Of a DNA stretch of 64,000 bases, positions 1-59,142 are shown one piece after another. The translations under genes and the position numbers were made by a program. The notes beneath the pieces were generated by a model. The model worked only from the letters and a program-made list of their open reading frames with translations, did not search any database and was not told the DNA's origin. Position 1 is the stretch's first letter, and each line of letters begins with the position of its first letter. Source of the stretch: Patescibacteria group bacterium (lineage in GTDB: Bacteria > Patescibacteriota > Patescibacteriia > Patescibacteriales > WJLG01); the NCBI GenBank assembly GCA_028716485.1, contig JAQUPS010000005.1, positions 3,666 to 67,665 of the forward strand. The letters run 5' to 3'.

Positions 1-1
1 T

Positions 2-1861
2 ATCACTTCCGAAGAAATTTATTATCAGTCGCAGGATTCTCTGTACAGTCAGCTGCGCGATAAATTGTTGGGTGAAATTGATTCGTCCTGGTGGCTGAAA
101 GATAAGAGCGGCAACTTCGTTTCCTTTTGGTCAAAGACGAGGATGCTTAATCTGACCGACGGCTCGGGAATGAATGGCTCCGGCCAGCGTTGGAACGATT
201 TTCTTCCGCAATTCGTTAATGACAACGTTATGTCCACCGGACTTTGGGATGGAGTTTTTTATGATAATGTCTGGCCGGATATTTCCTGGCTGAACGGCGG
301 CAATTTGGATGTTGATAATGACGGCCAAGCCGAAAGTAAAAGTGTTTTGGATAATGCCTGGGTAGCGGGCAATAAAAAAATGATGGCCAATACGCAAGCG
401 CTTTTCGGTAATAAATATCTGGTTGTGGCCAACAGCCGGCGCGCACCGGCTTACCAGTTTTATCTGAACGGCATCATGCTGGAAAGTTTTCCCGCGCCCT
501 GGGAAGCTGGAGGTACCTGGGCAGGATCAATGAACACTTATGCCGATAACAAAAATTTTCTCAATCCTTATGTCGGAATTATCAACGCTAATACTGATAA
601 TAACTGGTCGCCGGATAATTACCATAAGATGCGTTTTTCTTTGGGCTCGGCGCTTCTGGGCAATGGCAGTTTTTCTTTTGATTTCGGCGTCAATGACCAT
701 TCGCAGACTTGGTGGTATGACGAATACCAAACGGCTTTGGGGAAAGCAGTAGCCGAACCGATAAATATTTTGGATAAAAATAATAAAACTTATAAAAAAG
801 GATTATGGCGGCGCGATTTTCAAAACGGCATCGCGGTGGTCAACTCGACTGATCAAACGCAGAATTACGCCTTCACTGACGAAGCTTTCAATAAATTGAG
901 CGGCCAGCAAGACCCGATTGTCAATAACGGTTCGCGAGTGAATCTGGTGAGTATTGCCGCGCGCGACGCGGTGATTTTGCTCGGCGATTTATCCAGTCGG
1001 AAAATTCCGGCTGCGAATCAGTTTGCGCCTATTCTTCCGGCCGCTCAGCCGGTTTCTACTGGCAAAACCACGGAGAATATAATCAAGGAAGCGGTTTTTA
1101 AGAATGGCATGTTTTTCCGGAGTTTTGACCAGGCCGGCAATCAAACCCGCAATGGTTGGTTCGCTTATGACAGCCGTTATCCGGGCGGAGCGCAAATTAT
1201 TTCTGCCGATATCGATAATGACGGCGTCAACGAAACTTTGGCCGCGAGCAATGGCGTAATCACGATTTATCGCGGCGCGAAAATATTAAAAACCTTTCAG
1301 CCGTTTGACGGCAGATTCAAAGGGGATATCTCATTGGCTATCGCCGATTTGAACGGCAACGGCCAGAAGCAATTGGTCATCGGCGCCGGAGCCGGCGGCG
1401 GCCCGCAGGTGCGGATTTTCAGCACTGACGGGCGTTTGCTTTCCGGCGGATTTTTCGCCTATGATCGCAACTTCCGCGGCGGAGTCAATGTGGCGGCGGT
1501 TGATTATAATAATGACGGCCGCGATGAGATAATTACCGGCGCCGGAGCCGGCGGCGGCCCGCAGGTGCGGATTTTCAATAAGGATGGCAAGGTTTTGGGC
1601 GGTTTTTTCGCCTATGACAAGAATTCCCGCTCCGGCGTTTCGGTTTCGGCTGGAAATGTTTCGGGAAACGGCGAAAAGCAAATTATCACCGGAGCCGGTT
1701 CGGGAGCTTTGCCGCAAGCGAGGGTTTGGGATAAATTCGGCCATTTGATTTCGCAATTTTTGGCTTATGATAAAAATTCGACTAGCGGCCTGACCATTGT
1801 TGCCGCCGATATCGATAACAGCGGCCAAGATGAAATTTTAGCGGGAAGCACGGCGTATTAA
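2..1861 (+). CDS. FG-GAP/VCBS-repeat surface protein (5' end outside window)
   Basis: The frame is open from nt 2, so the listed TTG at 65 is internal. The C-terminal half carries repeated FG-GAP-like units (DIDNDGVNE; DLNGNGQKQLVIGAGAGGGPQVRIF; DYNNDGRDEIITGAGAGGGPQVRIF; ADIDNSGQDEIL). The N-terminal part resembles glycoside-hydrolase-like domains (tentative). Confidence 0.75.
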   Translation: MTSEEIYYQSQDSLYSQLRDKLLGEIDSSWWLKDKSGNFVSFWSKTRMLNLTDGSGMNGSGQRWNDFLPQFVNDNVMSTGLWDGVFYDNVWPDISWLNGGNLDVDNDGQAESKSVLDNAWVAGNKKMMANTQALFGNKYLVVANSRRAPAYQFYLNGIMLESFPAPWEAGGTWAGSMNTYADNKNFLNPYVGIINANTDNNWSPDNYHKMRFSLGSALLGNGSFSFDFGVNDHSQTWWYDEYQTALGKAVAEPINILDKNNKTYKKGLWRRDFQNGIAVVNSTDQTQNYAFTDEAFNKLSGQQDPIVNNGSRVNLVSIAARDAVILLGDLSSRKIPAANQFAPILPAAQPVSTGKTTENIIKEAVFKNGMFFRSFDQAGNQTRNGWFAYDSRYPGGAQIISADIDNDGVNETLAASNGVITIYRGAKILKTFQPFDGRFKGDISLAIADLNGNGQKQLVIGAGAGGGPQVRIFSTDGRLLSGGFFAYDRNFRGGVNVAAVDYNNDGRDEIITGAGAGGGPQVRIFNKDGKVLGGFFAYDKNSRSGVSVSAGNVSGNGEKQIITGAGSGALPQARVWDKFGHLISQFLAYDKNSTSGLTIVAADIDNSGQDEILAGSTAY

Positions 1862-1870
1862 ATTAAGAAT

Positions 1871-1904
1871 TTCCGCCAAAGGCGGATCAGCCCTTGGCTG
1901 AAAG
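1871..1904. repeat. twin-hairpin miniature element, copy 1
   Basis: CCGCCaaaGGCGG-at-CAGCCcttGGCTG. It is flanked by the 10-bp direct repeat AATTAAGAAT at 1861-1870 and 1905-1914. Confidence 0.7.
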
Positions 1905-1972
1905 AATTAAGAATGTCTATCGTTAATGAATGGCCAAGATAATAAATAAGCTATATAATTAATAATAACCAT

Positions 1973-5099: not shown

Positions 5100-5249
5100 T
5101 AAGTTAAGGGGTTAGACGAAAACGTCCGACCCTTTTTAAATCGAGCTAACTATCATTGACTGATTATCGAGTTTTGTTTATAGTATTACTAAATCAATGA
5201 AGGATTTTTTTAAATCGAAAATCAAAAATCACAATTCAAAAATAAAAAC

Positions 5250-5271
5250 GGTCCCTTCGTCTAACGGTTAG
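5250..5271 (+). pseudogene. tRNA-Glu-like 5' fragment A (acceptor + D-arm only)
   Basis: GGTCCCT TC GTCT AACGGTTA G matches the 5' end of the tRNA copies B and C downstream. The homology then breaks into a twin hairpin. Confidence 0.6.
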
Positions 5272-5308
5272 TGCCGACGCAAGGTCGGCATCCCGACTTT
5301 ACGTCGGG
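5272..5308. repeat. twin GC hairpin (related to the twin-hairpin family)
   Basis: TGCCGAC-gcaag-GTCGGCA, T, CCCGAC-tttac-GTCGGG. Confidence 0.6.
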
Positions 5309-5324
5309 AGACACCTTTTATGAA

Positions 5325-5478
5325 ATGGCATACGCTTATATATTAAAAACGGCCAAGGGAACTTATTACGTTGGAAGCACTGACCAGGGCCGATGCCCAG
5401 AAAAAAGAATATAAAATAAAAAGTTGGAAAAGCAGAAAGATGATTGAAGGAATTATTAAGCTTGGCCCGTTCGTCTAA
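5325..5478 (+). pseudogene. GIY-YIG nuclease remnant (internal deletion + frameshift)
   Basis: The N-terminus MAYAYILKTAKGTYYVGSTD (GIY-YIG motif) stops at 5414. The +1 frame continues as ..AQKKEYKIKSWKSRKMIEGIIKLGPFV*, which matches the C-terminus of the family. Its stop TAA (5476-5478) lies in the D-loop of tRNA fragment B. Confidence 0.65.
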
Positions 5479-5535
5479 CGGTAAGGACATCAGGTTCTTC
5501 AGCCAGAGGCTGACCACCCTCTGGGTGGCATCCTG
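5464..5535 (+). pseudogene. tRNA-Glu-like 5' half B with hairpin insertion in anticodon loop, 3' truncated
   Basis: GGCCCGT TC GTCT AACGGTAA GGAC A TCAGG TTCT[30-nt twin hairpin]CAT CCTG. No T-arm or 3' acceptor follows. Confidence 0.6.
5497..5530. repeat. twin-hairpin miniature element, copy 2 (inside tRNA-like loop)
   Basis: CAGCCagaGGCTG-a-CCACCCtctGGGTGG. Confidence 0.65.
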
Positions 5536-5548
5536 CCAATTTTAATCT

Positions 5549-5806
5549 ATGTGGTTTGTGTATTTAATACAAAGTAAAAAAGATTATACTTTTTATATCG
5601 GGTATACCGATGACATGAGAAGAAGATTAAAAGAACATAATGAGGGACGAACAAAATCAATTAAACATAAAGTTCCATTTGTCTTAAAATATTGTGAAAT
5701 TTATTGCAATAAAACAGTCGCAAGAAAAAGAGAGCTGGAATTAAAAAATAACAGTTTTAAAAAGAAAGAATTATTAGATAGGATTAAACATGCCGCCATC
5801 GTCTAG
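5549..5806 (+). CDS. GIY-YIG nuclease family protein (small stand-alone type)
   Basis: 85 aa. MWFVYLIQSKKDYTFYIGYTDDMRRRLKEHNEG carries the GIY-(x)-YIG motif plus R..L.EHN. The last 5 codons overlap tRNA-Glu, and the stop TAG sits in its D-loop. Confidence 0.85.
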   Translation: MWFVYLIQSKKDYTFYIGYTDDMRRRLKEHNEGRTKSIKHKVPFVLKYCEIYCNKTVARKRELELKNNSFKKKELLDRIKHAAIV

Positions 5807-5863
5807 TGGCTAGGACATAAGGTTCTCATCCTTAAAACCGGGGTTCAATTCCCCGTGGCGGTA
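5792..5863 (+). tRNA. tRNA-Glu(CUC)
   Basis: Hand-folded 72-nt cloverleaf: acceptor GCCGCCA/TGGCGGT; D arm GTCT-AGTGGCTA-GGAC; anticodon arm TAAGG-TTCTCAT-CCTTA; T arm CGGGG-TTCAATT-CCCCG. No CCA is encoded. Confidence 0.85.
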
Positions 5864-5868
5864 CGAAA

Positions 5869-5959
5869 AGCATATTCGTTAAATTAGGTTCTTCAGCCAG
5901 AGGCTGACCACCCCCTGGGCGGCATCCTGATAAGAGGAGTTCGATTCTCCCATGGACTA
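5869..5959 (+). pseudogene. tRNA-like copy D (degenerate 5' half, hairpin insertion, intact T-arm)
   Basis: AGCATAT TC GTT AAA TTAGG TTCT[twin hairpin]CAT CCTGA TAAG AGGAG TTCGATT CTCCC ATGGACT A. The D-arm is largely deleted and the acceptor pairs at only 5 of 7 positions. Confidence 0.55.
5891..5924. repeat. twin-hairpin miniature element, copy 3 (inside tRNA-like loop)
   Basis: CAGCCagaGGCTG-a-CCACCCcctGGGCGG. Confidence 0.65.
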
Positions 5960-5988
5960 CGGAATTTTAATTAACTAAACCATATCTT

Positions 5989-6567
5989 ATGCCTAAAAAA
6001 ATTACGGGATTGGCGGCAGTTTTATTTACCGCCGTTTTATTGGTTAGCGGCTGTTCAGCTCCTTGGGCTAAACAACCGGTACAGCCGATTGTCGGCAATG
6101 ACCGCGACGCGCACGGCTGTATCGGCTCGGCCGGATATTCCTGGTGCGAACTGAAGCAAAAATGTTTGCGGCCCTGGGAAGAGGCTTGCGCCAGCAAGCC
6201 CGCGCCAGCCACATCCACCATAATCACTTATTTGATTTCTAAAGAAGATCCGCTGAAGTATTGCAATGGCGGCGATATGAACAGCGATGCCTATCGGAAA
6301 ACTATAACCGCAGAAATGTCATCTACTACGCCGGAAATCAATTTGACCGAAGCGCAGTTGGCCAAAGACACGGCGATTCTGGCAACGAGCGGCATGTGCC
6401 AGACGGTTTTGAAACAACTTCCTGATTTTACCGTGGCGAGCGGAACGGTGGAAATTCCACCCATCAGCGGCTGGGCCGGCGTGTCAATCGTAATGTGCTA
6501 TTGCCAGCCGCAAGTGGAAGTCAATCTGCTGCGTTTGCCCGGTATTACGAAAGTCGTCTGGAAATAA
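5989..6567 (+). CDS. putative lipoprotein
   Basis: Signal peptide with lipobox: MPKKITGLAAVLFTAVLLVSGC|SAP. No recognisable catalytic motif. Confidence 0.6.
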   Translation: MPKKITGLAAVLFTAVLLVSGCSAPWAKQPVQPIVGNDRDAHGCIGSAGYSWCELKQKCLRPWEEACASKPAPATSTIITYLISKEDPLKYCNGGDMNSDAYRKTITAEMSSTTPEINLTEAQLAKDTAILATSGMCQTVLKQLPDFTVASGTVEIPPISGWAGVSIVMCYCQPQVEVNLLRLPGITKVVWK

Positions 6568-6702
6568 TAAAATAATAGTTTAAAAAACTTCCACGTTAAT
6601 GCGGAAGTTTTTTGTTTAAAAGATTGTCAACATCTTTGCCACTTTTTTTCAAAAAAAAGTGGCGCAAAAAAATGCTTGCCATACGGAAATTCATTTATTT
6701 TA

Positions 6703-7656
6703 TTATTTTAAAATTGTTCCGATAAAGTCGGCGTGGCCGCGCAGGAATTCTTCGGCCGAAAGCGGTTTCCCGCCCTCTAATTGCAGCTTTTTTATAATCA
6801 ACGCATCCTTGCCGCATTGAACAGCTATTTTATCATTATCCAAAAAAGTTTCCCCGGCCTTAAATTTATTTATTGGTAAAATCGTATTTTCAGCCTCTAA
6901 AATTTTAATAATTATTAATTCTTTATTCTTAATTATTAATTGGCCGAAGGCCGAAGGCCACGGCGTGAACGCCCTTACTTTTCGTTCAATTTCCACCGCC
7001 GGTTTCGACCAATCAATATGTCCGTCTTCTTTTTTTAATTCTCGCGCGTAAGTGACGGATTTTTCATCTTGCGGTTTCAATTCCATAACGCCCGCGGCGA
7101 AGGCTTTCAAGGTTTCCGGCAGCATTTTCGCGCCGAGCGCGGCCAATTCATCATGCAGAGTCGCGGCAGTTTCATTTTTTAAGATATTTATTTTCATCTG
7201 CGCAATGATCGGCCCGGTATCTAATCCAGCATCCATTTTCATAATCGTCACTCCGGTTTCCGTATCGCCGGCCAAAATCGGAGCCTGGATTACGGCCGCA
7301 CCCCGCCAGCGGGGGAGCAGGGAGGCGTGAATATTGACGCAGCCGTATTTGGGAATATCCAAAATATTTTGCGGAATTATTTGGCCGTAAGCGATGACGA
7401 TGATAAAATCCGGCTGAAGCGCGGCAATTTCATCTTTAATATCTTTTATTTTTTTCGGCTGTAAAATTTTAATCTTATTTTCCGTCGCGACCGTCTTGAC
7501 CGGCGGGGGAGTGAGCGTTTGCTTTCGGCCGACCGGCTTGTCTTCCTGGGTGATGACTGCGACAATATCAAAATCAGCGTCCGCAATCAGCGCCTTAAGC
7601 GCGGGAACGGCAAAGTCCGGCGTGCCGGCAAAGATTATTTTAAATTTATTTTTCAT
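6703..7656 (-). CDS. fmt: methionyl-tRNA formyltransferase
   Basis: MKNKFKIIFAGTPDFAVPALKAL..., HASLLPRWRGAAVIQAPI. The start is placed at the ATG at 7656, because the longer ORF would begin inside the 7672-7697 hairpin. Confidence 0.9.
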   Translation of the reverse strand: MKNKFKIIFAGTPDFAVPALKALIADADFDIVAVITQEDKPVGRKQTLTPPPVKTVATENKIKILQPKKIKDIKDEIAALQPDFIIVIAYGQIIPQNILDIPKYGCVNIHASLLPRWRGAAVIQAPILAGDTETGVTIMKMDAGLDTGPIIAQMKINILKNETAATLHDELAALGAKMLPETLKAFAAGVMELKPQDEKSVTYARELKKEDGHIDWSKPAVEIERKVRAFTPWPSAFGQLIIKNKELIIIKILEAENTILPINKFKAGETFLDNDKIAVQCGKDALIIKKLQLEGGKPLSAEEFLRGHADFIGTILK

Positions 7657-7671
7657 ATACGTTATTAATAA

Positions 7672-7697
7672 TGTCATCCCCGCGAAGGCGGGGATGA
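7672..7697. repeat. perfect 11-bp GC-rich hairpin
   Basis: GTCATCCCCGC-gaag-GCGGGGATGAC in the divergent spacer between fmt and dedA. Confidence 0.7.
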
Positions 7698-7767
7698 CAG
7701 ATGGACGGGGGCTTCAGAATAGTTGGAGGCGGTTGCGTCTTATTCCAATTATACTTATAATGTTTGT

Positions 7768-8442
7768 ATGCTTAATTTTATAAATAACTTAATAAATATT
7801 TTTGGACATTTCGGCTATCAGGGCATTGTTTTCTTGATGGCCTTGGAAAGCTCGATTATTCCCGTGCCGTCCGAATTGGTAATCCCGCCGGCCGGTATTT
7901 TGGCGGCCAGAGGAGAAATGAATTTGCTTATCGTAATCATTGCCGGAGTGGCCGGCAGTCTGATCGGCGCGATTTTGAGCTATTGGGTTTCCTGGCTGTT
8001 GGGCCGGGCGGTAATTCTGATTTTGGCTGATCATAAAATCGCGAAAATCTTGCAGATTACTCCGGCGAAAGTGGAGAAAGCGGAAAAATTTTTCTTGAAA
8101 TACGGCTCGGTTTCGGTTTTCGTCGGCCGCTTATTGCCGGTTATCCGCCATCTGATTTCCATTCCGGCCGGATTTTCCAAAATGAATTTTAGCAAATTCG
8201 TTTTTTATACTTTCGCCGGTTCGGCCATCTGGGTAACTGTTTTGGCCGTGGGCGGCTATTATCTTGGCGCCGAAACTGAACTGATTGCCGAGAATTTTAA
8301 AATGATCGTCGAAGTCCTTATCATCGTCGCAATTTTAGCTGGAATATTTTACTGGATATACGCAAGACGCCAGAAAATCCGCGGTAAACTTAATGCTAAT
8401 CTCGCGAATGATGCGGATGCCGCGAATATTGAAAAAAAATAA
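7768..8442 (+). CDS. DedA family membrane protein
   Basis: ESSIIPVPSELVIPPAG..., GRLLPVIRHLISIPAG. Multiple TM helices. The start is placed at MLNFINNL. Confidence 0.8.
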   Translation: MLNFINNLINIFGHFGYQGIVFLMALESSIIPVPSELVIPPAGILAARGEMNLLIVIIAGVAGSLIGAILSYWVSWLLGRAVILILADHKIAKILQITPAKVEKAEKFFLKYGSVSVFVGRLLPVIRHLISIPAGFSKMNFSKFVFYTFAGSAIWVTVLAVGGYYLGAETELIAENFKMIVEVLIIVAILAGIFYWIYARRQKIRGKLNANLANDADAANIEKK

Positions 8443-8462
8443 TTTATTTGACTTCAAATTTT

Positions 8463-8966
8463 CTAATTTTCCAATTTTCCAATTTCATCATTATTTTCAT
8501 CTATCTTCTTCAAATTTTTAGCTTTATCAATAAATAGAATTCCGTCCAGATGGTCGATCTCGTGCTGGATTACCCGGGAAAGAAAACCCGAAGCTTTGAT
8601 TTTATCTTTGGCTCCGGCTCGGTTGCAGAAAACGCAGGTGATTTTTTTATGCCGCTTAACGTCGCCAAAAATTAGAGGTACGGACAGACAGCCTTCCTCG
8701 CCCCATTCTTTCTGCCAGGATTTTTGCACGATTTTCGGATTGAATAATAAAATCGGCCCGTGTTTCGTGTTGACCACGATCAAGCGGACATTCTTGCCGA
8801 TTTGCGGCGCGGCCAAGCCTACGCCTTCTTTCTTAATCATCGTCTCTTCCAAATCAGCGCAAAGCTCCTCGAATTCTTTGGCTGTTATCCGATCTTCGCC
8901 GATTACTTCGGATTTGCGGCGCAAACTTTCCGCCGGTAGGGTTAATATTTTTAAGACTTTAGGCAT
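8463..8966 (-). CDS. def: peptide deformylase
   Basis: Motifs GLAAPQIG, EGCLSVP and HEIDHLDG. Confidence 0.92.
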   Translation of the reverse strand: MPKVLKILTLPAESLRRKSEVIGEDRITAKEFEELCADLEETMIKKEGVGLAAPQIGKNVRLIVVNTKHGPILLFNPKIVQKSWQKEWGEEGCLSVPLIFGDVKRHKKITCVFCNRAGAKDKIKASGFLSRVIQHEIDHLDGILFIDKAKNLKKIDENNDEIGKLEN

Positions 8967-9114
8967 AAATTATCATAACACATAGCACATAACACGTAAC
9001 ACGAATTCCTATGATCATGTTATGTGTTATGAGTTGCGCGTTACGTTATGTAATATTGAGAATTAACCAATATTATGATAAAGTATAGTATTAATACGAT
9101 GAAAATGCAAATTT

Positions 9115-9420
9115 ATGGGGAATGAAAATAAAAGCGAATTTGAAAGCTTGAGTTCGATATTTATTCAAAATAAAAAACGAACGGCTAAGAAGCCGCCGGC
9201 CTATCCCTGGCAGGATTTTGCTTTGCAAGTGGTGGCGGGTTTGGGCGTACCGAATTTTAAGCGCGCCTCGATTTTTAAGATTTGCCGCGATTACCCCAAG
9301 GATTTTGTGGAAAGATGTTTGAACGACACGAAGGAGTTATGCCAGAGCGGAGAGAAGTGGAAGTATTTTTTGAAAGTGGTCGATACAGAAATAAAAAGGA
9401 ACATAGAGCATAGAACATGA
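9115..9420 (+). CDS. hypothetical protein
   Basis: 101-aa ORF with no recognisable motif. Confidence 0.4.
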   Translation: MGNENKSEFESLSSIFIQNKKRTAKKPPAYPWQDFALQVVAGLGVPNFKRASIFKICRDYPKDFVERCLNDTKELCQSGEKWKYFLKVVDTEIKRNIEHRT

Positions 9421-9455
9421 CTTATTAAAATTGCTTCGCGCTCCATGTTCGTTTT

Positions 9456-10253
9456 TTAGTTGGGCAGCGGTTTGAAAATCATGGACAGATAGCCGACGCC
9501 GAAAGGGGATTCGTAGGCGGTTGAGGCGATGTCATAGCCGGTATTGCCCAGGATTCCCAAGAGCATCGCGATGGCCGAAAGTCCGCAAGGCTTGGCTTCG
9601 GCGATCAAGTTTTCGTCAAGATTAAGAAAATCAATAACTGATTTATTTTGCAGCAACTCGATTATTCTCTGGTCAAATTTTGCCGCGCGCGGAGAAAATC
9701 CGGCCGGTGATTTTTTTTCCAAAGTATGAGATAAGTCGCCGGAGGCTAAGACTGCGATTTTTTTTCGGCCTTTTTCTATCTGCGCGCCGATAATTTTTCC
9801 TAAATTGAAATTGGCCAGCAAGCCGGCATGAGCTATGTAAAGCGGGACGACTTCAATATTTTTTTGATTGGCGAGCAGGGAATAAAGCGGCACGCCGCAG
9901 CCATGGTCGAGGGTGGGTTGGGAAATCGCCTGAACCTGATGATGTTCGATTAATTTTTCCCGGATGTTTTGCGCCAGCTCCAAATCGCCGCCAAGATTAA
10001 GCTTGGCGGAAAAATCGCCGAACTCTTCAAAATTAATTTCAAATTCCGGCGCCAGATTGATGCTCCAAGTATCCGGTCTGATCGGGCCGTGCGAAGAAAC
10101 GATAACGATAGTTTCTATTTTTTCCGCCGCCAAATACTCTTCTATTTTAGAATAGGAATTTTTGGTTTTTTCCAGGCGCAAAATATTTTCCTTGCCGATG
10201 GAAGGAATTAATATGGGCGGGTGAGGGACGATAGCGGCAAGTTTAAGCGACAT
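9456..10253 (-). CDS. class III extradiol dioxygenase (LigB/Memo-like) family protein
   Basis: AIVPHPPILIPSIG..., VSSHGP, DHGCGVPLY, LASGDLSH. This pattern is typical of LigB-fold proteins. The substrate is unknown. Confidence 0.6.
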   Translation of the reverse strand: MSLKLAAIVPHPPILIPSIGKENILRLEKTKNSYSKIEEYLAAEKIETIVIVSSHGPIRPDTWSINLAPEFEINFEEFGDFSAKLNLGGDLELAQNIREKLIEHHQVQAISQPTLDHGCGVPLYSLLANQKNIEVVPLYIAHAGLLANFNLGKIIGAQIEKGRKKIAVLASGDLSHTLEKKSPAGFSPRAAKFDQRIIELLQNKSVIDFLNLDENLIAEAKPCGLSAIAMLLGILGNTGYDIASTAYESPFGVGYLSMIFKPLPN

Positions 10254-10261
10254 AAAATTAT

Positions 10262-10333
10262 ATATAATGCGAATGCCGCGAAAATCGCGAATAAATTATC
10301 AATTCATCATTATTCACGTCATTCGCATTAATA
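10262..10333. repeat. dispersed ~75-bp hairpin spacer element, copy 1
   Basis: TAATGCGAATG (10265-10275) pairs perfectly with CATTCGCATTA (10320-10330). It shares the words GAATGCCGCGAA and CGTCATTCGCATTA with 43131-43213. Confidence 0.6.
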
Positions 10334-10337
10334 ACTT

Positions 10338-11741
10338 TTAGAAGTTATTTTCCTTAATCACTTCACCGTTGTTATAGTTGGCGAGGAATTGGGGCGAGAC
10401 ATTGATAATGTTGGATAATTTATAGCCGAGCTTGACAAGCAGATCAGAAGACATGAACGGTCGTTTAACTCCGCCGGCAATCAGATAGATAGCCGGAGAG
10501 TTCGAAGATTTCAAGAGTTCGCCGTCGCCGAAGAGTATCGGGTCGGTAGTCGGGTATTGAGCCAATTCCGCGGCGGCAGCCTTAATAATTTTTTTGTTTT
10601 TAAATTTGTTCGTGAGCACGGCCTTGTCGGGGATGGGGGCTTTTTTGCCTTCGTACACCCAATAAACTCCGCCGGTCTTGCTGTCTTGCAGCAGGGCGCC
10701 GGCCGGATAAGTCGAAGTGGCAGTCAGGGGAACGCCTTCGGGATACGAATTTATATCATTCCAGCCGGCGGCCACGACTTCCGCCGGGTTGTAGCCGAAT
10801 TTCTTGAAGACAGCCTTGGAAGTGAAGCCGCGCTTCTGGTCGTCCACCAAAAGATAAACCGTACCGCGCGGGGAACGGATTAAAGAATAATTGGAAAATC
10901 TGATCGGCGTGCTGGTTCCGAATTTATCCATATCGGCTTTTTCGACCGTAATTATTTTATTAATATTGAATCTTGACGCCAGGACGCTCGGAGAACTAAA
11001 GGCTCTTTTTTTGCCGTCTTGGATCAGCCAAACTGTTTTATCGCCTTTGATCTGCAAAAGCGAACCGTCCGGATAATTGCGGGCGAAATATTTTTGCCAG
11101 AGCGTGTAGAAATTATAATTGCCGTTAAAGACGTGCGGCGTGTAATTATATAAAGCGGCCGTGGCGAGATTGTAAGGCGTGACCAGCGAAGAAGGAGGAT
11201 TGTTATACGCCGAGCAGGTATTATTGAAAGTATAAGTATTGCCCGGGCGATAGCCATATTCAAAGGGGTTCACCATATAATCATAAAATTGCAGGGTGGC
11301 GCTGTTGATTTGTTTCCAAAATCCTTGCCAGCGCGAGTTGCAGCCGCCGCCGTCGGGACAGCCATAGCCCGTGGCCCAATCAAGGCTCCCCTGGGACGGA
11401 TTGGGATCTTCGATCAATCCTTGTTCTTTTTGCAAAAGCACCAGCACGAATCGGGGACTGATCTTGTTGGCCTGACAGACCTCATAGATGGCTTGAGCCG
11501 CGGTTTCACAGACGCCGGTATTGGGATTGGTGACGGTATAAGCGGCCAGATAGCTGCCTTTGCTTTGCAGAAAATTCTGGATATCCTGGGCATCCATTGC
11601 GTTATAATTAAAAATTTCCGCATCACTGATGATGTAATTCGGGTCAAAATCCGGCCGGATGTCCTGCGCCAAAGTTGTTCGGGACAGGCCAAAAACGGCT
11701 ATTATAGATAAGATGACGGCCAAGAGATGTATTTTTTTCAT
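10338..11741 (-). CDS. secreted hypothetical protein (possible cell-wall-binding/hydrolase-like N-domain)
   Basis: Signal peptide MKKIHLLAVILSIIAVFGLSRTTLA. The functional assignment is weak. Confidence 0.5.
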   Translation of the reverse strand: MKKIHLLAVILSIIAVFGLSRTTLAQDIRPDFDPNYIISDAEIFNYNAMDAQDIQNFLQSKGSYLAAYTVTNPNTGVCETAAQAIYEVCQANKISPRFVLVLLQKEQGLIEDPNPSQGSLDWATGYGCPDGGGCNSRWQGFWKQINSATLQFYDYMVNPFEYGYRPGNTYTFNNTCSAYNNPPSSLVTPYNLATAALYNYTPHVFNGNYNFYTLWQKYFARNYPDGSLLQIKGDKTVWLIQDGKKRAFSSPSVLASRFNINKIITVEKADMDKFGTSTPIRFSNYSLIRSPRGTVYLLVDDQKRGFTSKAVFKKFGYNPAEVVAAGWNDINSYPEGVPLTATSTYPAGALLQDSKTGGVYWVYEGKKAPIPDKAVLTNKFKNKKIIKAAAAELAQYPTTDPILFGDGELLKSSNSPAIYLIAGGVKRPFMSSDLLVKLGYKLSNIINVSPQFLANYNNGEVIKENNF

Positions 11742-11852
11742 GAGTAATAAGATAATTATTTTTTAAAGCAATATAGGGATAGTATAATACAATACCGGAC
11801 ATTTTTCAATTGCTGATTGTGGACGCGGAACGCCGAGGGGTAAATTTATGAC

Positions 11853-11921
11853 TTATCCACAGAAAATTTATAAAAATTCACCACAATTTTTTAAACGCAA
11901 TTTAGGACGGGCTGTGGATAA
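11853..11921. promoter_or_regulatory. pair of perfect DnaA boxes (inverted)
   Basis: TTATCCACA at 11853-11861 on the + strand, and TGTGGATAA at 11913-11921 (TTATCCACA on the - strand). Weaker boxes are TTCACCACA at 11877-11885 and TGTGGAC at 11818-11824. Confidence 0.55.
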
Positions 11922-11976
11922 TTTTTGGGTAAATTTCGGGGCTAATTTTTACATAAATCAGGGTGGGGAAGGGGGT

Positions 11977-12005
11977 TTGACGCTGATTTTTTTTAGGTGT
12001 ATAAT
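11977..12005 (+). promoter_or_regulatory. sigma70 promoter of nrdR-nrdD-nrdG
   Basis: TTGACG (11977-11982), 17 nt, then TATAAT (12000-12005) preceded by TG. Confidence 0.65.
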
Positions 12006-12016
12006 ATAATTAGATA

Positions 12017-12064
12017 CCACAAGATATGGGGTTTGAACGTTGATTAAGCCACAAATTATTGATT
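12017..12064 (+). promoter_or_regulatory. tandem NrdR boxes
   Basis: CCACAAGATATGGGGT (12017-12032) and CCACAAATTATTGATT (12049-12064) match the NrdR-box consensus acaCwAtATaTwGtgt (as I recall it) at 12/16 and 11/16 positions. The boxes are 32 bp apart, immediately downstream of the promoter. Confidence 0.6.
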
Positions 12065-12269
12065 AAGTCAATTTCCCCACCTTCGCTCGCCGTAGCCTTG
12101 GCAAAGGCGAGTTTCATTAGAGATTGTGGCGAATGGCAAAGGTAAGATTTATAAAATTATAGCGAGCTCTTCGGTGGACACGACCAACAGGCTTTTATTA
12201 GCTGTAACCTTGGCGAAGGCAAGCTTCGCGGGACAAAGCCCATCTATTATCGTGGCTAATTAAATTTTT

Positions 12270-12740
12270 ATGATTTGCCCTATCTGCTATTTTGAAGATA
12301 CCAAGGTGATTGATTCCCGGGTGGCGTCCGACGGTCTTTCGATCAGGCGGAGAAGAGAGTGCGAAAAATGCGGTTTCCGCTTTTCCACTTTTGAAGAAAT
12401 GGAAATATTGGATTTGACAGTCGTTAAGCGCGACGGCCAGAAAGAAGCTTACAGCCGCGATAAATTGGTTTCCGGTTTGAAAAAAGCCTTGGAAAAACGG
12501 CCGATTGATGATGACGGTTTTAAAAAATTAGTCCATAATATCGAACGGGATATCCAGCAATTGAAAAAGAGCGAGGTGACATCCAGTGAAATCGGCGAAA
12601 TCGTGATGAAACACTTGAAAGAGACCGATGTGGTCGCCTATATCCGCTTTGCCTCGGTTTATGAATCATTCGAAGACGCGAAAGATTTCAAGGAAACTTT
12701 AAATAAGATATTAGAAGATAAGAAAAAAAGCAAGAAGTAA
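12270..12740 (+). CDS. nrdR: transcriptional repressor NrdR
   Basis: Zn-ribbon MICPICYFEDTKVIDSR...CEKCGFRFSTFE followed by an ATP-cone. Confidence 0.92.
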   Translation: MICPICYFEDTKVIDSRVASDGLSIRRRRECEKCGFRFSTFEEMEILDLTVVKRDGQKEAYSRDKLVSGLKKALEKRPIDDDGFKKLVHNIERDIQQLKKSEVTSSEIGEIVMKHLKETDVVAYIRFASVYESFEDAKDFKETLNKILEDKKKSKK

Positions 12741-12812
12741 AAAGCAAAAAATTATTTAAGTTTTTTGTAATTAGACCGGCTCACTTTTAACTTTCCGCTT
12801 TTAATTTCCGTT

Positions 12813-14966
12813 ATGCCAAATATTATATCGCAAATTCGTAAGCGCTCGGGTGAAATCGTTGATTTTAACCGGGAAAAAATTACCGCCGCCGTCAAGAAAG
12901 CGGAAGAATCAGTCGGTATGGCTGATTCTGATTTGGCGGAAAAGCTTACCAATCAGGTCGTCGATAAGCTGTCCCGAAAATTCCATGCCCGCAGCATTCC
13001 GGCGGTCGAAGAAATCCAGGATGTGGTCGAAGAAACTTTGATTGAAAGCAAGCAGATCACTTTGGCCAAGGCGTTTATCCTTTATCGCGACCAGCACCGC
13101 CAGCTGCGCGACTTGAATACTAAAACCAACGACGAAAAATTGATGGAAGATTATCTCGGGCAGGCGGATTGGCGTTTGAAAGAAAACAGCAATATGAGTT
13201 TTTCCGTGCAGGGTTTGAATAATTATCTGGCTTCCTCGATTTCCGCCAAGTATTGGCTTAATAAATTGTATCCGGTCGAGATTCGCGACGCGCACATCAA
13301 CGCTGATCTGCATATTCATGATTTGGGGATGCTGGCGTCGTATTGCGCGGGCTGGAATTTAAAAGATCTTTTAATGCGTGGGTTTTCCGGCGTGGATGAG
13401 AAAACGCAATCCGGGCCGGCCAATCATTTCCGCAGCGCCTTGGGGCAATTGGTGAATTTTCTTTATACTATGCAAGGAGAATTGGCTGGCGCCTGCGCGG
13501 TTTCCAATTTTGACACTTACCTCGCGCCGTTTATCCGTTATGACGGCTTAACCAAGAAAGAAGTAAAACAAGCTTTGCAGGAATTCGTTTTCAATATGAA
13601 TGTGGCGACTCGCGTCGGTTTTCAGACGCCGTTTACCAATGTCACTTTGGATGTCAAACCGATCGGCACTTTGGCCGAGGAATGCGTGATCATCGGCGGG
13701 ATGGTTAAGCCGGAAAAATACAAGGATTTTCAGCCGGAAATAGATATTTTCAATGAAACATTCGCTTCGATAATGCTGGAAGGGGATTCCAAGCACCGGA
13801 TGTTCGCTTTCCCGATTCCGACTTACAATATTGATAAGACTTTTGAATGGGATCGTCCGTCATTGGCAGGAGTTTGGGAGATGACCGCCAAATATGGTAT
13901 TCCTTATTTTTCCAATTTTGTTAATTCCGATATGAAACCGGAAGACGCCCGCAGTATGTGCTGCCGCTTGCGCCTGGACAACCGCGAATTAAGAAAACGC
14001 GGCGGCGGATTGTTCGGCGCCAATCCCTTGACCGGATCAATCGGCGTAGTCACCATCAATCTGGCGCGCATCGGTTTCTTAGCCAAGGATAAAGAGGATT
14101 ATAAATTGCGCCTGGGCCATTTGATGGATTTGGCCAAAGAAAGTTTGGAAATAAAAAGAAAAGTTCTGGAAAGATTCACCGAAGCCGGACTTTATCCTTA
14201 TTCCAAATTTTATCTTTCCGATATCGTGGAAAGATTCGGCAAGTATTGGCAGAACCATTTTTCCACCATCGGCATCAATGGGATGAACGAATCGCTCTTG
14301 AATTTTATGAAGCGCGACATCGCTTCCGCCGAGGGCAAGGCTTTTGCCGTGGAAGTCCTTGATTTCATCCGGGAGCGATTGAAAAATTATCAGAACGAAA
14401 CCAATAATCTTTATAATCTGGAAGCGACGCCGGCCGAAGGAACCACTTATCGTTTTGCCAAGAAAGACAAAGAGATTTATCCCAATATTATCGTGGCCAA
14501 TGACGAAGCGGTGAAGAAAGGCGCGGATCCGTATTACACCAATTCCACGCACTTGCCGGTTAATTATACCAGCGATATTTTCGAGGCGCTGGAATTGCAG
14601 GATGAATTGCAAACCAAATATACCGGCGGCACGGTTTTGCACGGCTTCTTGGGCCAGAAAATAGATGATCCGGAAGCGGCCAAACGCCTGGTCAAGAAAA
14701 TAGTTTATAATTATCATTTGCCTTATTTCACCATCACCCCGACTTTTTCCATCTGTCCTAAACACGGTTATCTGGCCGGCGAGCATAAATATTGCCCCAA
14801 ATGCGACGAGGAAAACGGCTACCGAGAATTAGCGGCCGACGTGTCCGCCGAAGTCCCGCTCGGCGGGACGAAGGGGGGAGAAATGGTCGTGCGCCCAGTC
14901 GTAATTGAAGCAGTTGAAACCAGTCATAGCGGCAAGGAAAGGGATATTATTAACGCCATCGCTTAG
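12813..14966 (+). CDS. nrdD: anaerobic ribonucleoside-triphosphate reductase NrdD, lacking the glycyl-radical C-terminus
   Basis: ATP-cone N-terminus and class III RNR core (..NSDMKPEDARSMCCRLRL.., GGTVLHGFLG, Zn site ICPKHGY..YCPKC). After the Zn site the ORF runs into GC-hairpin-derived sequence and stops without the RVxGY/W glycyl-radical motif. Confidence 0.85.
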   Translation: MPNIISQIRKRSGEIVDFNREKITAAVKKAEESVGMADSDLAEKLTNQVVDKLSRKFHARSIPAVEEIQDVVEETLIESKQITLAKAFILYRDQHRQLRDLNTKTNDEKLMEDYLGQADWRLKENSNMSFSVQGLNNYLASSISAKYWLNKLYPVEIRDAHINADLHIHDLGMLASYCAGWNLKDLLMRGFSGVDEKTQSGPANHFRSALGQLVNFLYTMQGELAGACAVSNFDTYLAPFIRYDGLTKKEVKQALQEFVFNMNVATRVGFQTPFTNVTLDVKPIGTLAEECVIIGGMVKPEKYKDFQPEIDIFNETFASIMLEGDSKHRMFAFPIPTYNIDKTFEWDRPSLAGVWEMTAKYGIPYFSNFVNSDMKPEDARSMCCRLRLDNRELRKRGGGLFGANPLTGSIGVVTINLARIGFLAKDKEDYKLRLGHLMDLAKESLEIKRKVLERFTEAGLYPYSKFYLSDIVERFGKYWQNHFSTIGINGMNESLLNFMKRDIASAEGKAFAVEVLDFIRERLKNYQNETNNLYNLEATPAEGTTYRFAKKDKEIYPNIIVANDEAVKKGADPYYTNSTHLPVNYTSDIFEALELQDELQTKYTGGTVLHGFLGQKIDDPEAAKRLVKKIVYNYHLPYFTITPTFSICPKHGYLAGEHKYCPKCDEENGYRELAADVSAEVPLGGTKGGEMVVRPVVIEAVETSHSGKERDIINAIA

Positions 14967-15157
14967 GCCAATTTAAAGTTACCTTGCCTACCGGCAGGCA
15001 GGAAAATGAAAAATTAAAAATAAGAATTTTAAAATTAATAAACTAAATAAAAATATAAAAAAAAGAATTAAAAACGCCAAATTAGAAATTAAAAATTGCC
15101 CAAGCCTAATAAAATTTTTAACTTTTAATTTTTAACTTTTAATTTTTTAAAGGAGTT

Positions 15158-15301
15158 ATGAGCCCGATCAAAACAAAAAGACAGGAATGCATCATTTACA
15201 GCCGCGTCGTCGGCTGGCTGACGCCGGTAAAAAATTGGAACAAGGGCAAAAAAGCCGAGTTCGTCGACCGGAAGACTTTTGATGTGGATGAGAAGTTTTA
15301 A
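15158..15301 (+). CDS. stand-alone NrdD glycyl-radical domain (47 aa)
   Basis: MSPIKTKRQECIIYSRVVGWLTPVKNWNKGKKAEFVDRKTFDVDEKF matches the canonical NrdD C-terminus (YSRVxG[YW]..P...WN.GK..E...R). AGGAG lies 5 nt upstream of the ATG. It is absent from the ORF track because it is under 60 aa. Confidence 0.75.
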   Translation: MSPIKTKRQECIIYSRVVGWLTPVKNWNKGKKAEFVDRKTFDVDEKF

Positions 15302-15345
15302 CTAATTTCATGACCGGTTAGCTGGTTTCTAACCGGCCTATCGTT

Positions 15346-16086
15346 ATGAAAATCGGTGGTTTGGAAAAATTAAGCTTGATCGATTACCCGGGCGAGTTGT
15401 CAGCAGTTGTTTTTACTATCGGTTGCACGTTCCGCTGCCCGTTTTGCTATAATCCCATGCTTGTCCTGTCCGGTTCGGATAGGAGTGGAGATACTTTGCC
15501 GCGAGGCGAAGAAATAGATAAAGATCATACTCGGTTAAACGAGGATGATCTTTTTCTTTTTTTATCTCGCCGCCAAAATAAGCTGGACGCCGTGGTGATC
15601 ACCGGCGGCGAGCCGACCATGCACCAGGATTTGCCGGAGTTTATCCGGAAAATCAAAAAGCTTGGCTATAAAATAAAGCTCGACACCAACGGCACCAACC
15701 CGGCAATGTTAAAAAAAATAATTTCCGCCAATTTGATCGATTATCTGGCAATGGATATCAAAGCCGCTCCGGCCGATTATCCGCGCGCGACAGGCGTCAA
15801 ATTTGATTTTGAGAAAATCAAGCAAAGTGTTAAAATAATAATGGCGAGCAACTTGCCTTACGAATTCCGCACCACTTGCGTTCCCGGCTTCATCGATGCG
15901 GACGGCATTGCTAAAATAGGGGAGTTAATTAAAGGCGCGGACAAATGGTATTTGCAAAATTTTAAATCAGATGCGGAATTGATTGATAATAACCTGCGCG
16001 GCAAATCCGGGTTTACGGCCGCGGAAATGGAAACATTTGCCAGTATCGGTCGGAAATATGTAAAGAAATGCGAGGTGAGAGGATAA
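15346..16086 (+). CDS. nrdG: anaerobic RNR activating enzyme (radical SAM)
   Basis: CTFRCPFCYNP (CxxxCxxC) and VVITGGEPT. Confidence 0.88.
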   Translation: MKIGGLEKLSLIDYPGELSAVVFTIGCTFRCPFCYNPMLVLSGSDRSGDTLPRGEEIDKDHTRLNEDDLFLFLSRRQNKLDAVVITGGEPTMHQDLPEFIRKIKKLGYKIKLDTNGTNPAMLKKIISANLIDYLAMDIKAAPADYPRATGVKFDFEKIKQSVKIIMASNLPYEFRTTCVPGFIDADGIAKIGELIKGADKWYLQNFKSDAELIDNNLRGKSGFTAAEMETFASIGRKYVKKCEVRG

Positions 16087-16162
16087 TACTAAATATCAGG
16101 TAACAGGTAGCATGTAACATATCGATTCTAAATTTTGTTACTTGATACATGTTGCTTGCCAC

Positions 16163-28071: not shown

Positions 28072-28168
28072 AAATTGTAGTATAATAAAGTCATTGATAA
28101 TAACTTCAAGGTTCTTAGCTTTTAAATTTGTCAGGGAATGATTGTCGCAACGGAGTAAATTTTTAATT

Positions 28169-28200
28169 TTTTCAGCCAAAGGCTGATCACCCTTTGAGTG
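28169..28200. repeat. twin-hairpin miniature element, copy 4
   Basis: CAGCCaaaGGCTG-a-TCACCCtttGAGTGA. It is flanked by the 12-bp direct repeat AAATTTTTAATT at 28157-28168 and 28201-28212. Confidence 0.7.
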
Positions 28201-28221
28201 AAATTTTTAATTGATTAAAAT

Positions 28222-29688: not shown

Positions 29689-29780
29689 AAATTAGAAATT
29701 AGAAATTAGAAATTAGAAATTAGAAATTAGAAATTAGAAATTAGAAATTAGAAATTAGAAATTAGAAATTAGAAATTAGA
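29683..29780. repeat. heptanucleotide tandem repeat (AATTAGA)x14
   Basis: 14 perfect units counted by hand. The TAG stop of the upstream gene (29686-29688) lies in the first unit. Confidence 0.95.
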
Positions 29781-49531: not shown

Positions 49532-49580
49532 AATCAGCAGCACATTTTTAATTTTTCATTTTTAACTTTTAATTGAAATT

Positions 49581-59136: not shown

Positions 59137-59142
59137 AACGTC

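Follow-up and report, generated by a model that had tools for sequence, protein, structure and literature searches.

Several families of short GC-rich hairpin elements have been described. Mitochondrial double-hairpin elements (DHEs) of chytrid fungi and Schizosaccharomyces (Paquin et al. 2000; Bullerwell et al. 2003; summarised in PMC10085805) consist of two adjacent hairpins, occur in AT-rich genomes in intergenic DNA and inside rRNA genes, and have near-identical sequences across species, suggesting horizontal transfer. They have no known mobilising enzyme. Rickettsia palindromic elements (RPEs; Ogata et al. 2000) are selfish palindromic repeats of about 100-150 bp, not known outside Rickettsia, which insert in-frame into protein-coding genes, where they are translated, and into RNA genes. 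REP/REPIN elements (PMC3116915, PMC2817692, PMC3733652) are high-copy extragenic palindromes with a GTAG or CGTC tag and lineage-specific sequences. Doublets are the unit, there is no target-site duplication (TSD), hairpin recognition is presumed, and mobilisation is in trans, the repeats flanking a RAYT (Y1 HUH) gene. Yeast mitochondrial GC clusters are short mobile palindromes in AT-rich DNA, sometimes translated inside a gene (var1), often with short AT/TAG duplications. Finally, free-standing GIY-YIG homing endonucleases, such as SegB of phage T4 (PMC2330249), are embedded in tRNA gene clusters, with presence/absence polymorphism between relatives and co-transfer of flanking tRNA sequence.

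We analysed a 64,000-nt stretch of a Patescibacteria genome (hereafter the window), in which a first-pass annotation had noted four twin hairpins with paired stem substitutions and interpreted them as a miniature element inserted with target-site duplication. The observation is confirmed: all four copies (c1 to c4) have the reported positions and stems. Each is a 30-nt core of two abutting hairpins (TH) with 6-bp stems and 3-nt loops, and the second hairpin of c2 and of c4 carries one mismatch. The signal is above chance. The single-hairpin pattern gave 13 matches against 1.7 expected, and 0 of 100 shuffles reached 13. A covariance model built from 87 copies found only these four in the window (E <= 3e-7). 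The next hit, at 40918-40949, has E 0.16 and, read by eye, is not a TH. As single-stranded DNA, c1 folds as the twin hairpin with z = -4.3. The same c1 sequence is found in an independent Logan assembly. The features are listed in the table.

Features of the window associated with twin hairpins (L numbers denote loci retrieved for comparison; L202, L204 to L208 and L214 to L216 below are from relatives).
Coordinates	Strand	Feature	Details
1861..1871	+	Left part of a pre-existing (AATTAAG)n heptamer array	Interrupted by c1; deletion of 1872-1901 restores a perfect 7-nt periodic array
1872..1901	.	Solo TH c1, TCCGCCAAAGGCGGA followed by TCAGCCCTTGGCTGA	Between the stop codon of the GHL15/FG-GAP gene and the promoter-like site of the DUF11 gene; model score 48.8 bits, E 1e-11
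1902..1914	+	Right part of the same heptamer array	Contains the second copy of the supposed TSD
5250..5271	+	First 22 nt of the ancestral tRNA-Glu(CTC), GGTCCCTTCGTCTAACGGTTAG	tRNA intact in L214 and L215
5272..5309	.	Second, different twin hairpin (7-bp stems, 5-nt loops) splitting this tRNA fragment	z -5.1; followed by GACACC and a decayed GIY-YIG ORF (about 5325-5414, MAYAYILKTAKGTYYVGSTDQ...)
5464..5498	+	5' part (positions 1-35) of a tRNA-Glu-like pseudo-copy	Ends in the anticodon loop ...AGGTTCT; same architecture in L017, L214, L217, L221, L223 and L227 (but see text for L214)
5499..5528	.	TH c3, between anticodon-loop positions 35 and 36	Followed by CATCCTG (5529-5535); GIY-YIG start codon 20 nt downstream of the TH; the anticodon stem closes the twin hairpin
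5549..5806	+	85-aa GIY-YIG nuclease gene, catalytic domain only	Pfam PF01541, E 2.9e-15
5792..5864	+	Intact tRNA-Glu(CTC) directly after the GIY-YIG gene	ARAGORN and Rfam
5893..5922	.	TH c4	In the second copy of a 47-nt direct repeat (5489-5535 and 5883-5929, 94% identical); followed by the 3' part of the tRNA-Glu-like pseudo-copy (5923-5959)
28158..28171	+	Two AATTTTT heptamer units left of c2	One more unit on the right at 28202-28208
28172..28201	.	Solo TH c2, TCAGCCAAAGGCTGA followed by TCACCCTTTGAGTGA	Second hairpin decayed; in the spacer between dnaE and a 488-aa gene; 43.8 bits

The interpretation as a mobile element with target-site duplication is supported only in part. Comparison of orthologous spacers in related Patescibacteria, which had been proposed as a test, demonstrated filled and empty sites: c1 is absent from L214, L215 and L216, and c2 from L202/L204, L205/L206, L207 and L208. 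Thus these are real insertions, and the structure-preserving paired substitutions also hold. However, the TSD is not supported. The sequence AATTAAGAAT indeed occurs exactly at 1861-1870 and 1905-1914, but in L216 the orthologous spacer is an uninterrupted (GAATTAA)x5 array, so the 10-bp repeat is the periodicity of a microsatellite that was already there. The window holds at least 17 period-7 arrays. The annotation had missed that c2 also has 7-nt repeat flanks; relatives have two AATTTTT units and no TH at this site, one unit fewer than the window. Among 135 copies elsewhere, 119 have no flanking direct repeat, and the 4 with a 7-nt repeat have 7-nt repeat flanks, as confirmed by eye for two of them (c1, c2). 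T was observed at position -2 in 113 and A at position +2 in 106 of the 135 copies. The copy in AspRS corresponds to an alignment gap of exactly 10 residues (30 nt), and copies in tRNA fragments restore the normal tRNA sequence when exactly 30 nt are removed. In particular, removal of the TH restores the anticodon loop TTCTCAT, and ARAGORN detects two tRNAs only after TH deletion.

The element is widely distributed. A degenerate pattern hit at least 120 genomes from many phyla, against about 0.05 expected by chance, although the resulting set of 120 loci was selected by a pattern that fixed much of the sequence, including purine and pyrimidine loops. One consensus is shared by Patescibacteria, Omnitrophota, PVC, Bacteroidota/Ignavibacteria, Chloroflexota and MAGs labelled Proteobacteria, and the same sequence appears in an isolate genome, Marivirga aurantiaca. 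No TH was found in 770 kb of unrelated control loci, nor in syntenic loci of relatives apart from the cassette copy of L214. The control loci came from an fmt-based metagenome scan, which gave a syntenic relative (L123) only for window region 6085-16088, where there is no TH.

A third of the copies (47 of 138) are inside long ORFs, including AspRS, RpoB, RpoC and PheT; GyrA and MurA are also among the core enzymes with such 10-residue loops. Most are in the frame reading S-A-x-G-G-S-A-x-G-G: the frame distribution is 33/6/8 (p = 5e-7). Variants that create a stop codon are 4 of 47 inside ORFs against 40 of 91 outside. The conserved unit is the hairpin. At positions that the scan left free, we observed AT 21 / CG 106 / mispaired 1, AT 39 / CG 88 / mispaired 1, and GC 124 / CG 4. 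The twin-hairpin model is 99% paired, against 86.8% for one long 30-nt palindrome, and the variable positions pair within hairpins, not across them. The set used for this comparison was, however, pre-filtered for at least 11 of 12 pairs.

Copies c3 and c4 are not independent insertions. They are inside the 47-nt direct repeat, which is the anticodon stem-loop of a broken tRNA-Glu-like gene and flanks the GIY-YIG ORF and the intact tRNA-Glu. Hence the statement of the first-pass annotation that no transposase is associated with any copy is inaccurate in that a nuclease gene lies between these two. Both are parts of a conserved cassette: tRNA-Glu positions 1-35, TH in the anticodon loop, CATCCT, 8-25 nt, a small GIY-YIG nuclease gene, then an intact tRNA-Glu. 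The TH is at the orthologous position in 9 of the 10 aligned cassette junctions, with compensatory changes; the exception, L214, lacks the tRNA 5' half. The GIY-YIG orthologue in L214 has the same TH+CATCCTG upstream, whereas L215 has the bare tRNA-Glu, and the window has two cassettes. Four GIY-YIG homologues selected by protein similarity alone, representing four further lineages, all have the tRNA-Glu/TH/GIY-YIG layout. In the second cassette of the window, a different twin hairpin followed by GACACC and a decayed GIY-YIG ORF matches the layout TH + CATCCT + GIY-YIG. GIY-YIG is the only gene family that recurs near THs in the 120 loci: it was found in 9 loci, against 3 for the next family. 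There are 11 GIY-YIG genes in 925 kb of TH loci, about 7-8 of them within about 200 nt of a TH, against 2 in about 0.94 Mb of control loci.

We compared the TH with the described systems one by one. Like DHEs, it is a GC-rich element of two adjacent hairpins, about 30-35 nt long, in AT-rich genomes, in intergenic DNA and rRNA genes, with near-identical sequences across species that suggest horizontal transfer and with no known mobilising enzyme, but this is a resemblance in form only: the hosts are bacterial and from many phyla, and the TH is abundant in-frame in protein genes and physically tied to the GIY-YIG/tRNA-Glu cassette. Like RPEs, it is a selfish palindromic repeat that inserts in-frame into protein-coding genes, where it is translated, and into RNA genes, but it is 30 bp long, has a different consensus and different hosts, and encodes a Gly/Ser/Ala loop. 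With REP/REPIN elements it shares a short GC-rich palindrome at high copy number, the doublet as the unit, the lack of a TSD, and presumed hairpin recognition and mobilisation in trans. It does not fit them, as the consensus starts with TCCGCC and ends with GGCGGA without the tag, is shared across phyla, and a third of the copies are intragenic; no RAYT gene was found among the 58 scanned ORFs (of 64 candidates) of the window or near THs, whole genomes not being covered. It does not fit palindrome-associated elements derived from IS200/IS605 either, as there are exactly two abutting hairpins without extra bases for guide and cleavage sequences, the flank preference is only T at -2 and A at +2 instead of a fixed tetra- or pentanucleotide, and no TnpA(Y1) was seen. 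GC clusters are likewise short mobile GC-rich palindromes in AT-rich DNA, sometimes translated inside a gene, but occur in a different compartment and have different sequences. The cassette resembles free-standing homing endonucleases in that the GIY-YIG gene is embedded among tRNA genes and lodged in or next to its presumed target, with presence/absence polymorphism between relatives and co-transfer of flanking tRNA sequence. However, the window protein has 85 aa and no DNA-binding domain, is chromosomal in CPR bacteria, and is preceded by a twin hairpin splitting a duplicated tRNA-Glu 5' half. Literature searches, including those with the literal sequences, found no prior description of the element, which thus is apparently undescribed.

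With moderate confidence, we interpret the feature as a copy of a 30-bp, dyad-symmetric, GC-rich insertion element. The analysis demonstrates that it enters DNA as an exact 30-bp unit without TSD, mostly at T-N^N-A sites; that it is present in some lineages and absent in others at orthologous sites; that it occurs in many phyla in intergenic DNA, in fragments of tRNA and 5S rRNA genes, and in-frame in protein genes; that each hairpin retains pairing through two-sided substitutions; that the repeat at 1861-1914 is a pre-existing microsatellite; and that c3 and c4 are the TH module of the cassette, which behaves like a free-standing homing-endonuclease cassette lodged at the anticodon loop and carrying its own replacement tRNA. 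The remainder is our inference from sequence alone, including any cleavage by the nuclease. Solo THs such as c1 and c2 would be non-autonomous offshoots of the cassette TH, pasted in trans, by an unexplained route into sites without homology, at breaks made by the domain-only, probably structure-specific GIY-YIG nuclease. The hairpins, as extruded or single-stranded DNA, would be recognised by the enzyme or the repair step, and the mobile cassette would carry the element between phyla. On the other hand, more than 90% of THs have no GIY-YIG gene within 8 kb, so any action must be in trans; two GIY-YIG genes in control loci have no TH; and the association could arise because both elements collect at tRNA pseudo-copies.

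A still more speculative possibility, which we consider doubtful, is that the TH and the 85-aa protein form a two-part selfish system of a new mechanistic kind. The nuclease would recognise extruded twin hairpins or make breaks at TT^NA sites, into which the 30-bp module would be copied or ligated without duplication, genome-wide and even in essential genes. Each new copy would become a further landing pad for the cassette, which itself would home into the tRNA-Glu anticodon loop while restoring the tRNA. This would be a new route of DNA transposition shared by many bacterial phyla. At 30 bp the element would be among the smallest mobile elements that we know of. It adds 10-residue loops to core enzymes such as RNA polymerase and aminoacyl-tRNA synthetases, hides tRNA-like sequences from gene finders, and may account for some of the short uncharacterised insertions reported in CPR rRNA genes (PMC11270868). 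The constant cassette provides an experimental entry point to the function of the very common small GIY-YIG proteins, and bears on the question of how hairpin elements without transposases, such as DHEs and GC clusters, move.

The best surviving alternative, possible but less likely, is that the TH is an independent selfish palindrome mobilised by host repair or by an unidentified trans-acting enzyme, for example a single-copy HUH/Y1, RAYT-like transposase acting on single-stranded hairpins, the cassette TH being a passenger fixed by descent in a shared habitat. Indeed, most copies are far from any GIY-YIG gene, the absence of TSD and the hairpin dependence resemble IS200/IS605 and REP/RAYT biology, and tRNA and 5S fragments carry several hairpin insertions, as junk DNA would. 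However, no transposase, HUH or reverse-transcriptase domain was found among the 58 scanned window ORFs, and no family other than GIY-YIG recurs near THs. A mere passenger would not show the constant position in the tRNA, 8-25 nt from the start codon, with compensatory changes, nor would a second GIY-YIG lineage have its own twin hairpin in the same relative place.

It is unlikely that the TH is an immobile structured motif retained by selection at each site, such as a terminator, an mRNA 5' stabiliser or processing signal, or a protein-binding palindrome. The compensatory changes just upstream of the GIY-YIG start codon, with the anticodon stem closing the structure, are compatible with an RNA role inside the cassette. 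However, THs are absent from orthologous spacers and occur inside ORFs with a frame bias. The flanks are T-rich 5' and A-rich 3', the wrong polarity for a terminator, and there is no sense-strand terminator call at either solo copy, no fixed position relative to promoters, and no Rfam family.

A classical MITE with a TSD of about 10 bp is very unlikely, and refuted for c1, despite the repeats around c1 and c2: the duplication is not of fixed length or even present at most copies, heptamer arrays are common in the window without THs, and the element is one palindrome, not a pair of terminal inverted repeats matching a parent IS with a DDE transposase, no transposase domain having been found in 58 of the 64 candidate window ORFs or as a recurrent neighbour in the 120 loci. 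Equally unlikely is a tiny intron or intervening sequence, or an assembly artefact: although the element occurs in tRNA-like and 5S-like sequences and CPR bacteria are rich in rRNA and tRNA insertions (PMC11270868, PMC13011429), its RNA-gene copies are in truncated pseudo-copies next to intact genes, the frame bias shows translation, 30 nt cannot hold a ribozyme, and the sequence recurs in independent assemblies and an isolate genome.

Several more specific readings were rejected. An archaeal-style split or BHB tRNA is excluded, as the organism is bacterial (a Patescibacteria MAG with fmt and def) and the two halves carry direct repeats, not complementary leaders. Solo THs cannot be footprints of deleted GIY-YIG cassettes, similar to solo LTRs, in essential genes, where a cassette of about 400 nt with stop codons would be lethal. 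An autonomous element flanked by single hairpins does not fit, as the cassettes carry whole THs. Repeated insertion and excision with a 7-bp TSD does not explain the heptamer arrays, which exist without THs in the window and in relatives, and the AspRS insert is exactly 30 nt. A phage or plasmid vector was rejected, as there are only 4 hits in IMG/VR and none in INPHARED or PLSDB. Finally, the TH that appeared to be within a functional 5S rRNA (locus L098) is in a 5S fragment upstream of the intact gene.

The four copies of the 30-nt twin hairpin (TH) were all found at the positions given by the first-pass annotation and with the stems that it described, so that its observation is confirmed. 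Each copy consists of two abutting hairpins with 6-bp stems and 3-nt loops. The number of matches exceeds the chance expectation, as the single-hairpin pattern gave 13 hits against 1.7 expected. A covariance model built from 87 copies found exactly these four in the window (E <= 3e-7), whereas the next hit had E 0.16 and was rejected by eye. Folded as single-stranded DNA, c1 forms the predicted structure with z = -4.3. In c2 and c4 the second hairpin has decayed.

Positions of the twin hairpins and of the features discussed in the text
Sequence	Position	Feature	Details
window	1872-1901	TH copy c1	TCCGCC-AAA-GGCGGA / TCAGCC-CTT-GGCTGA; between a GHL15/FG-GAP gene and a DUF11 gene
window	28172-28201	TH copy c2	TCAGCC-AAA-GGCTGA / TCACCC-TTT-GAGTGA; between dnaE and a 488-aa gene
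window	5499-5528	TH copy c3	TCAGCC-AGA-GGCTGA / CCACCC-[T/C]CT-GGG[T/C]GG (form given for c3 and c4 together)
window	5893-5922	TH copy c4	as c3
window	1861-1870 and 1905-1914	10-bp repeat flanking c1	AATTAAGAAT
window	5489-5535 and 5883-5929	47-nt direct repeat containing c3 and c4	anticodon stem-loop of a tRNA-Glu-like gene, CAGGTTCT^[30 nt]^CATCCTG
window	5549-5806	85-aa GIY-YIG ORF	PF01541
window	5792-5864	tRNA-Glu(CTC)	intact
window	5250-5414	second cassette type	tRNA-Glu 5' fragment, distinct twin hairpin, GACACC, truncated GIY-YIG ORF
window	5250-5271	first 22 nt of another tRNA-Glu	
window	5272-5309	distinct twin hairpin	7-bp stems, z -5.1; TGCCGACGCAAGGTCGGCA and TCCCGACTTTACGTCGGGA
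window	29682-29781; also 5212-5248, 6909-6941, 15113-15147, 38005-38035, 42210-42245, 45751-45781, 49544-49574 and others	period-7 (or 14) tandem arrays	intergenic
window	24436-28071	dnaE	
window	about 27715-27820	GC-rich 30-nt tandem repeat inside dnaE	2.5 copies
window	about 52300-63600	phage or mobile-element-like genes	
window	61504-61575	tRNA-Gln	
window	16531-17265	Bro-N domain protein	
L098 (TH locus)	2240-2711	two internal 5S rRNA fragments	upstream of the intact 5S gene
L008 (locus with decayed tRNA-Glu)	1-260 (- strand)	decayed tRNA-Glu copy	single 15-nt hairpins and a TH
L207 (relative of the window)	5238-9926	dnaE with intein	1562 aa, PF14890

The window lies on a 72-kb contig of a Patescibacteria (CPR) MAG with locus tags PHO56_.... 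Removal of the 30 nt from the 47-nt repeat that contains c3 and c4 gives a perfect TTCTCAT anticodon loop. The GIY-YIG ORF and the intact tRNA-Glu(CTC) lie between the two copies of this repeat. The second cassette, whose GIY-YIG ORF has decayed, is situated just upstream and suggests that twin hairpins of different sequence are a general feature of these cassettes. Of 64 candidate ORFs in the window, 58 were scanned against Pfam, and no transposase, HUH or reverse-transcriptase domain was observed among them.

A degenerate 30-nt pattern was then scanned over one genome per species. At least 120 loci were found, whereas by our estimate about 0.05 hits are expected for random sequence. By our count, the first 80 loci listed include about 31 from CPR, 8 from Omnitrophota, 7 from PVC, 9 from Bacteroidota/Ignavibacteria/Chlorobi and about 10 from MAGs labelled Gammaproteobacteria or Pseudomonadota, as well as loci from Chloroflexota, Elusimicrobia and others. 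One is from an isolate, Marivirga aurantiaca. The commonest form is TCCGCC-RRA-GGCGGA / TCCGCC-TYY-GGCGGA, which reads alike on both strands. A structure-only scan of these loci and the window yielded 146 twin hairpins against 1 in shuffled sequence, and 138 of the 146 belong to the family. The negative controls are clear: no copies were observed in 770 kb of unrelated fmt loci, in about 100 kb from the closest relatives of the window, in PLSDB or in INPHARED, and only 4 were found in IMG/VR.

The interpretation of the first-pass annotation, insertion with target-site duplication, is partly supported: the element is an insertion, but the duplication is not real. The dnaE spacer orthologous to the c2 site lacks the TH in four related genomes (about 70% protein identity) and reads ...CATTTTTAATTTTTAATTGATC...ATG. 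The spacers orthologous to the c1 site lack it in the relatives L214 and L215, and in the relative L216 this spacer reads TGAATTAAGAATTAAGAATTAAGAATTAAGAATTAAGAATGT, an uninterrupted heptamer array. So the 10-bp repeat around c1 is the periodicity of an array that predates the insertion. Of 135 copies, 119 have no flanking direct repeat. The 4 copies with a 7-nt repeat have 7-nt repeat flanks, which was confirmed by eye for two of them (c1 and c2). What the flanks do share is T at -2 (113 of 135) and A at +2 (106 of 135), that is, T-N^N-A. Tandem arrays of period 7 (or 14) with locus-specific units, for example (AAATTAG)x14.3, are frequent in the intergenic regions, and the window contains at least 17 of period 7 without THs in its 64 kb. 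Arrays are also present in orthologous spacers of relatives ((GAATTAA)x5 in L216, (TTTTTAC)n in L207), and in other phyla THs often sit between direct or inverted heptamer arrays (loci L040, L066, L070, L084 and L096).

Of the 138 copies, 47 lie in long ORFs. The host genes encode AspRS (twice), RpoB, RpoC, PheT (twice in one gene), Mfd, CysRS, HisRS, MurA and GyrA, among others. In the alignment with Thermus AspRS, the insert SAKGGSASGG faces a gap of exactly 10 residues, and in RpoB the insert lies in a variable loop. The use of the three frames is 33/6/8 (p = 5e-7), and 26/2/4 for ORFs with at least 100 codons on each side. Variants that would create TGA in the favoured frame account for 4 of 47 copies in ORFs, but for 40 of 91 outside. 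So the 30 nt stay in the mRNA and are translated, as an RNA-level intron would show no frame bias. Because a whole nuclease cassette would kill such genes, the 30-bp unit must insert on its own. A second, different hairpin-type in-frame insertion was found in the dnaE gene of the window, where the GC-rich tandem repeat, with the hairpins GTCCCGC-CGA-GCGGGAC and GGGGG-ACAAG-CCCCC, encodes a 31-aa insert (SFVPPSGTAGDKPPFATASGDKPPFATASGDK) absent from the DnaE of three relatives.

At positions that the scan pattern left free, pairing is almost perfect. In hairpin 1, positions 3-13 are AT in 21 copies, CG in 106 and mispaired in 1; in hairpin 2, positions 3-13 are AT in 39, CG in 88 and mispaired in 1, and positions 4-12 are GC in 124 and CG in 4. 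On 87 distinct copies, the twin-hairpin model is 99% paired with 109 two-sided changes, although this set had been pre-filtered for at least 11 of 12 pairs. A single long palindrome is 86.8% paired and fails exactly at the variable positions. So each hairpin is an independent unit. Single hairpins of the same kind also occur in tRNA pseudo-copies: decayed tRNA-Glu copies in L008, and those upstream and downstream of the GIY-YIG gene in loci L227/L228, carry several single 15-nt hairpins (for example TCCGCCATAGGCGGA) as well as a TH. The single hairpin may therefore be the basic insertable unit.

None of the TH-bearing tRNA or 5S sequences examined is an intact gene. In L098, each of the two 5S fragments ends in a GC-rich hairpin insertion. 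One of these insertions is a TH, which sits in a fragment covering model positions 25-54, 64 nt upstream of the intact 5S. The tRNA cases are partial copies next to intact tRNAs.

Clustering of all ORFs within 1.5 kb of THs revealed one recurrent family, the small GIY-YIG nuclease, in 9 loci, whereas the next families reach 3 loci. The TH loci contain 11 such genes in 925 kb, about 7-8 of them within about 200 nt of a TH, and about 0.94 Mb of control loci contain 2. However, small GIY-YIG genes of this family start immediately 3' of tRNA genes even where no TH is present (control loci L136 and L188; locus L112), and thus the tRNA association of the nuclease is general. Four homologues were then selected by protein similarity only (62-69% identity; Parcubacteria, Moranbacteria, Komeilibacteria and one other). 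All four have the same layout: tRNA-Glu 1-35, TH, CATCCT, 8-25 nt, GIY-YIG, intact tRNA-Glu(TTC). In L214, the 75% relative of the window, the orthologous nuclease is preceded by TH+CATCCTG and followed by the intact tRNA-Glu(CTC), whereas L215 has that tRNA alone. Ten cassette junctions were aligned, nine of them at this orthologous tRNA-Glu site, as L214 lacks the tRNA 5' half. The hairpins read TCAACC/GGTTGA, TCACCC/GGGTGA, TCAGCC/GGCTGA, CCAGCC/GGCTGG, CCACCC/GGGTGG or TCCGCC/GGCGGA. They are 98% paired and 5 pairs have two-sided changes, which was reached in 0 of 500 shuffles. The cassette can be read as an element [TH-CATCCT...GIY-YIG...tRNA 1-35] lodged between positions 35 and 36 of tRNA-Glu, which rebuilds an intact tRNA. 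The site TT^CA fits the flank preference of the solo copies.

The data thus establish exact insertion of 30 bp without duplication, lineage-specific presence, translation of the copies inside ORFs, pairing kept within each hairpin, and a constant place in a mobile GIY-YIG/tRNA-Glu cassette. The mechanism, on the other hand, is only inferred: the solo copies would derive from the TH of the cassette and would be placed in trans at breaks made by this domain-only, probably structure-specific nuclease, and the cassette would be the vehicle between phyla. The main alternative is a hairpin-specific transposase yet to be identified, with GIY-YIG as a bystander, and this possibility could not be excluded without whole genomes.

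The systems closest in form are the mitochondrial double-hairpin elements, the Rickettsia palindromic elements, REP/REPINs and the yeast mitochondrial GC clusters. Assignment to MITEs, REP/RAYT, IS200/IS605-derived elements, terminators or introns fails on those defining features that were tested. Literature searches, including searches with the literal sequences, found no description of the element, although a survey of CPR rRNA mentions many short uncharacterised insertions, and GIY-YIG genes in insertions that are not introns. Tiny palindromic selfish insertions as such are already known, and we consider the TH to be one of them. It is of high interest because of its size, its cross-phylum reach, its presence in essential genes and the testable nuclease link.

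The run of phage or mobile-element-like genes in the window (Phage_rep_O, AAA_24, ParB-like, RNase_T/ExoX-like exonuclease, VRR-NUC and many ORFs with no family) lies around tRNA-Gln and is possibly an integrated element. A Bro-N domain protein is encoded elsewhere in the window. Finally, the intein in the DnaE of the relative L207 is absent from the DnaE of the window.
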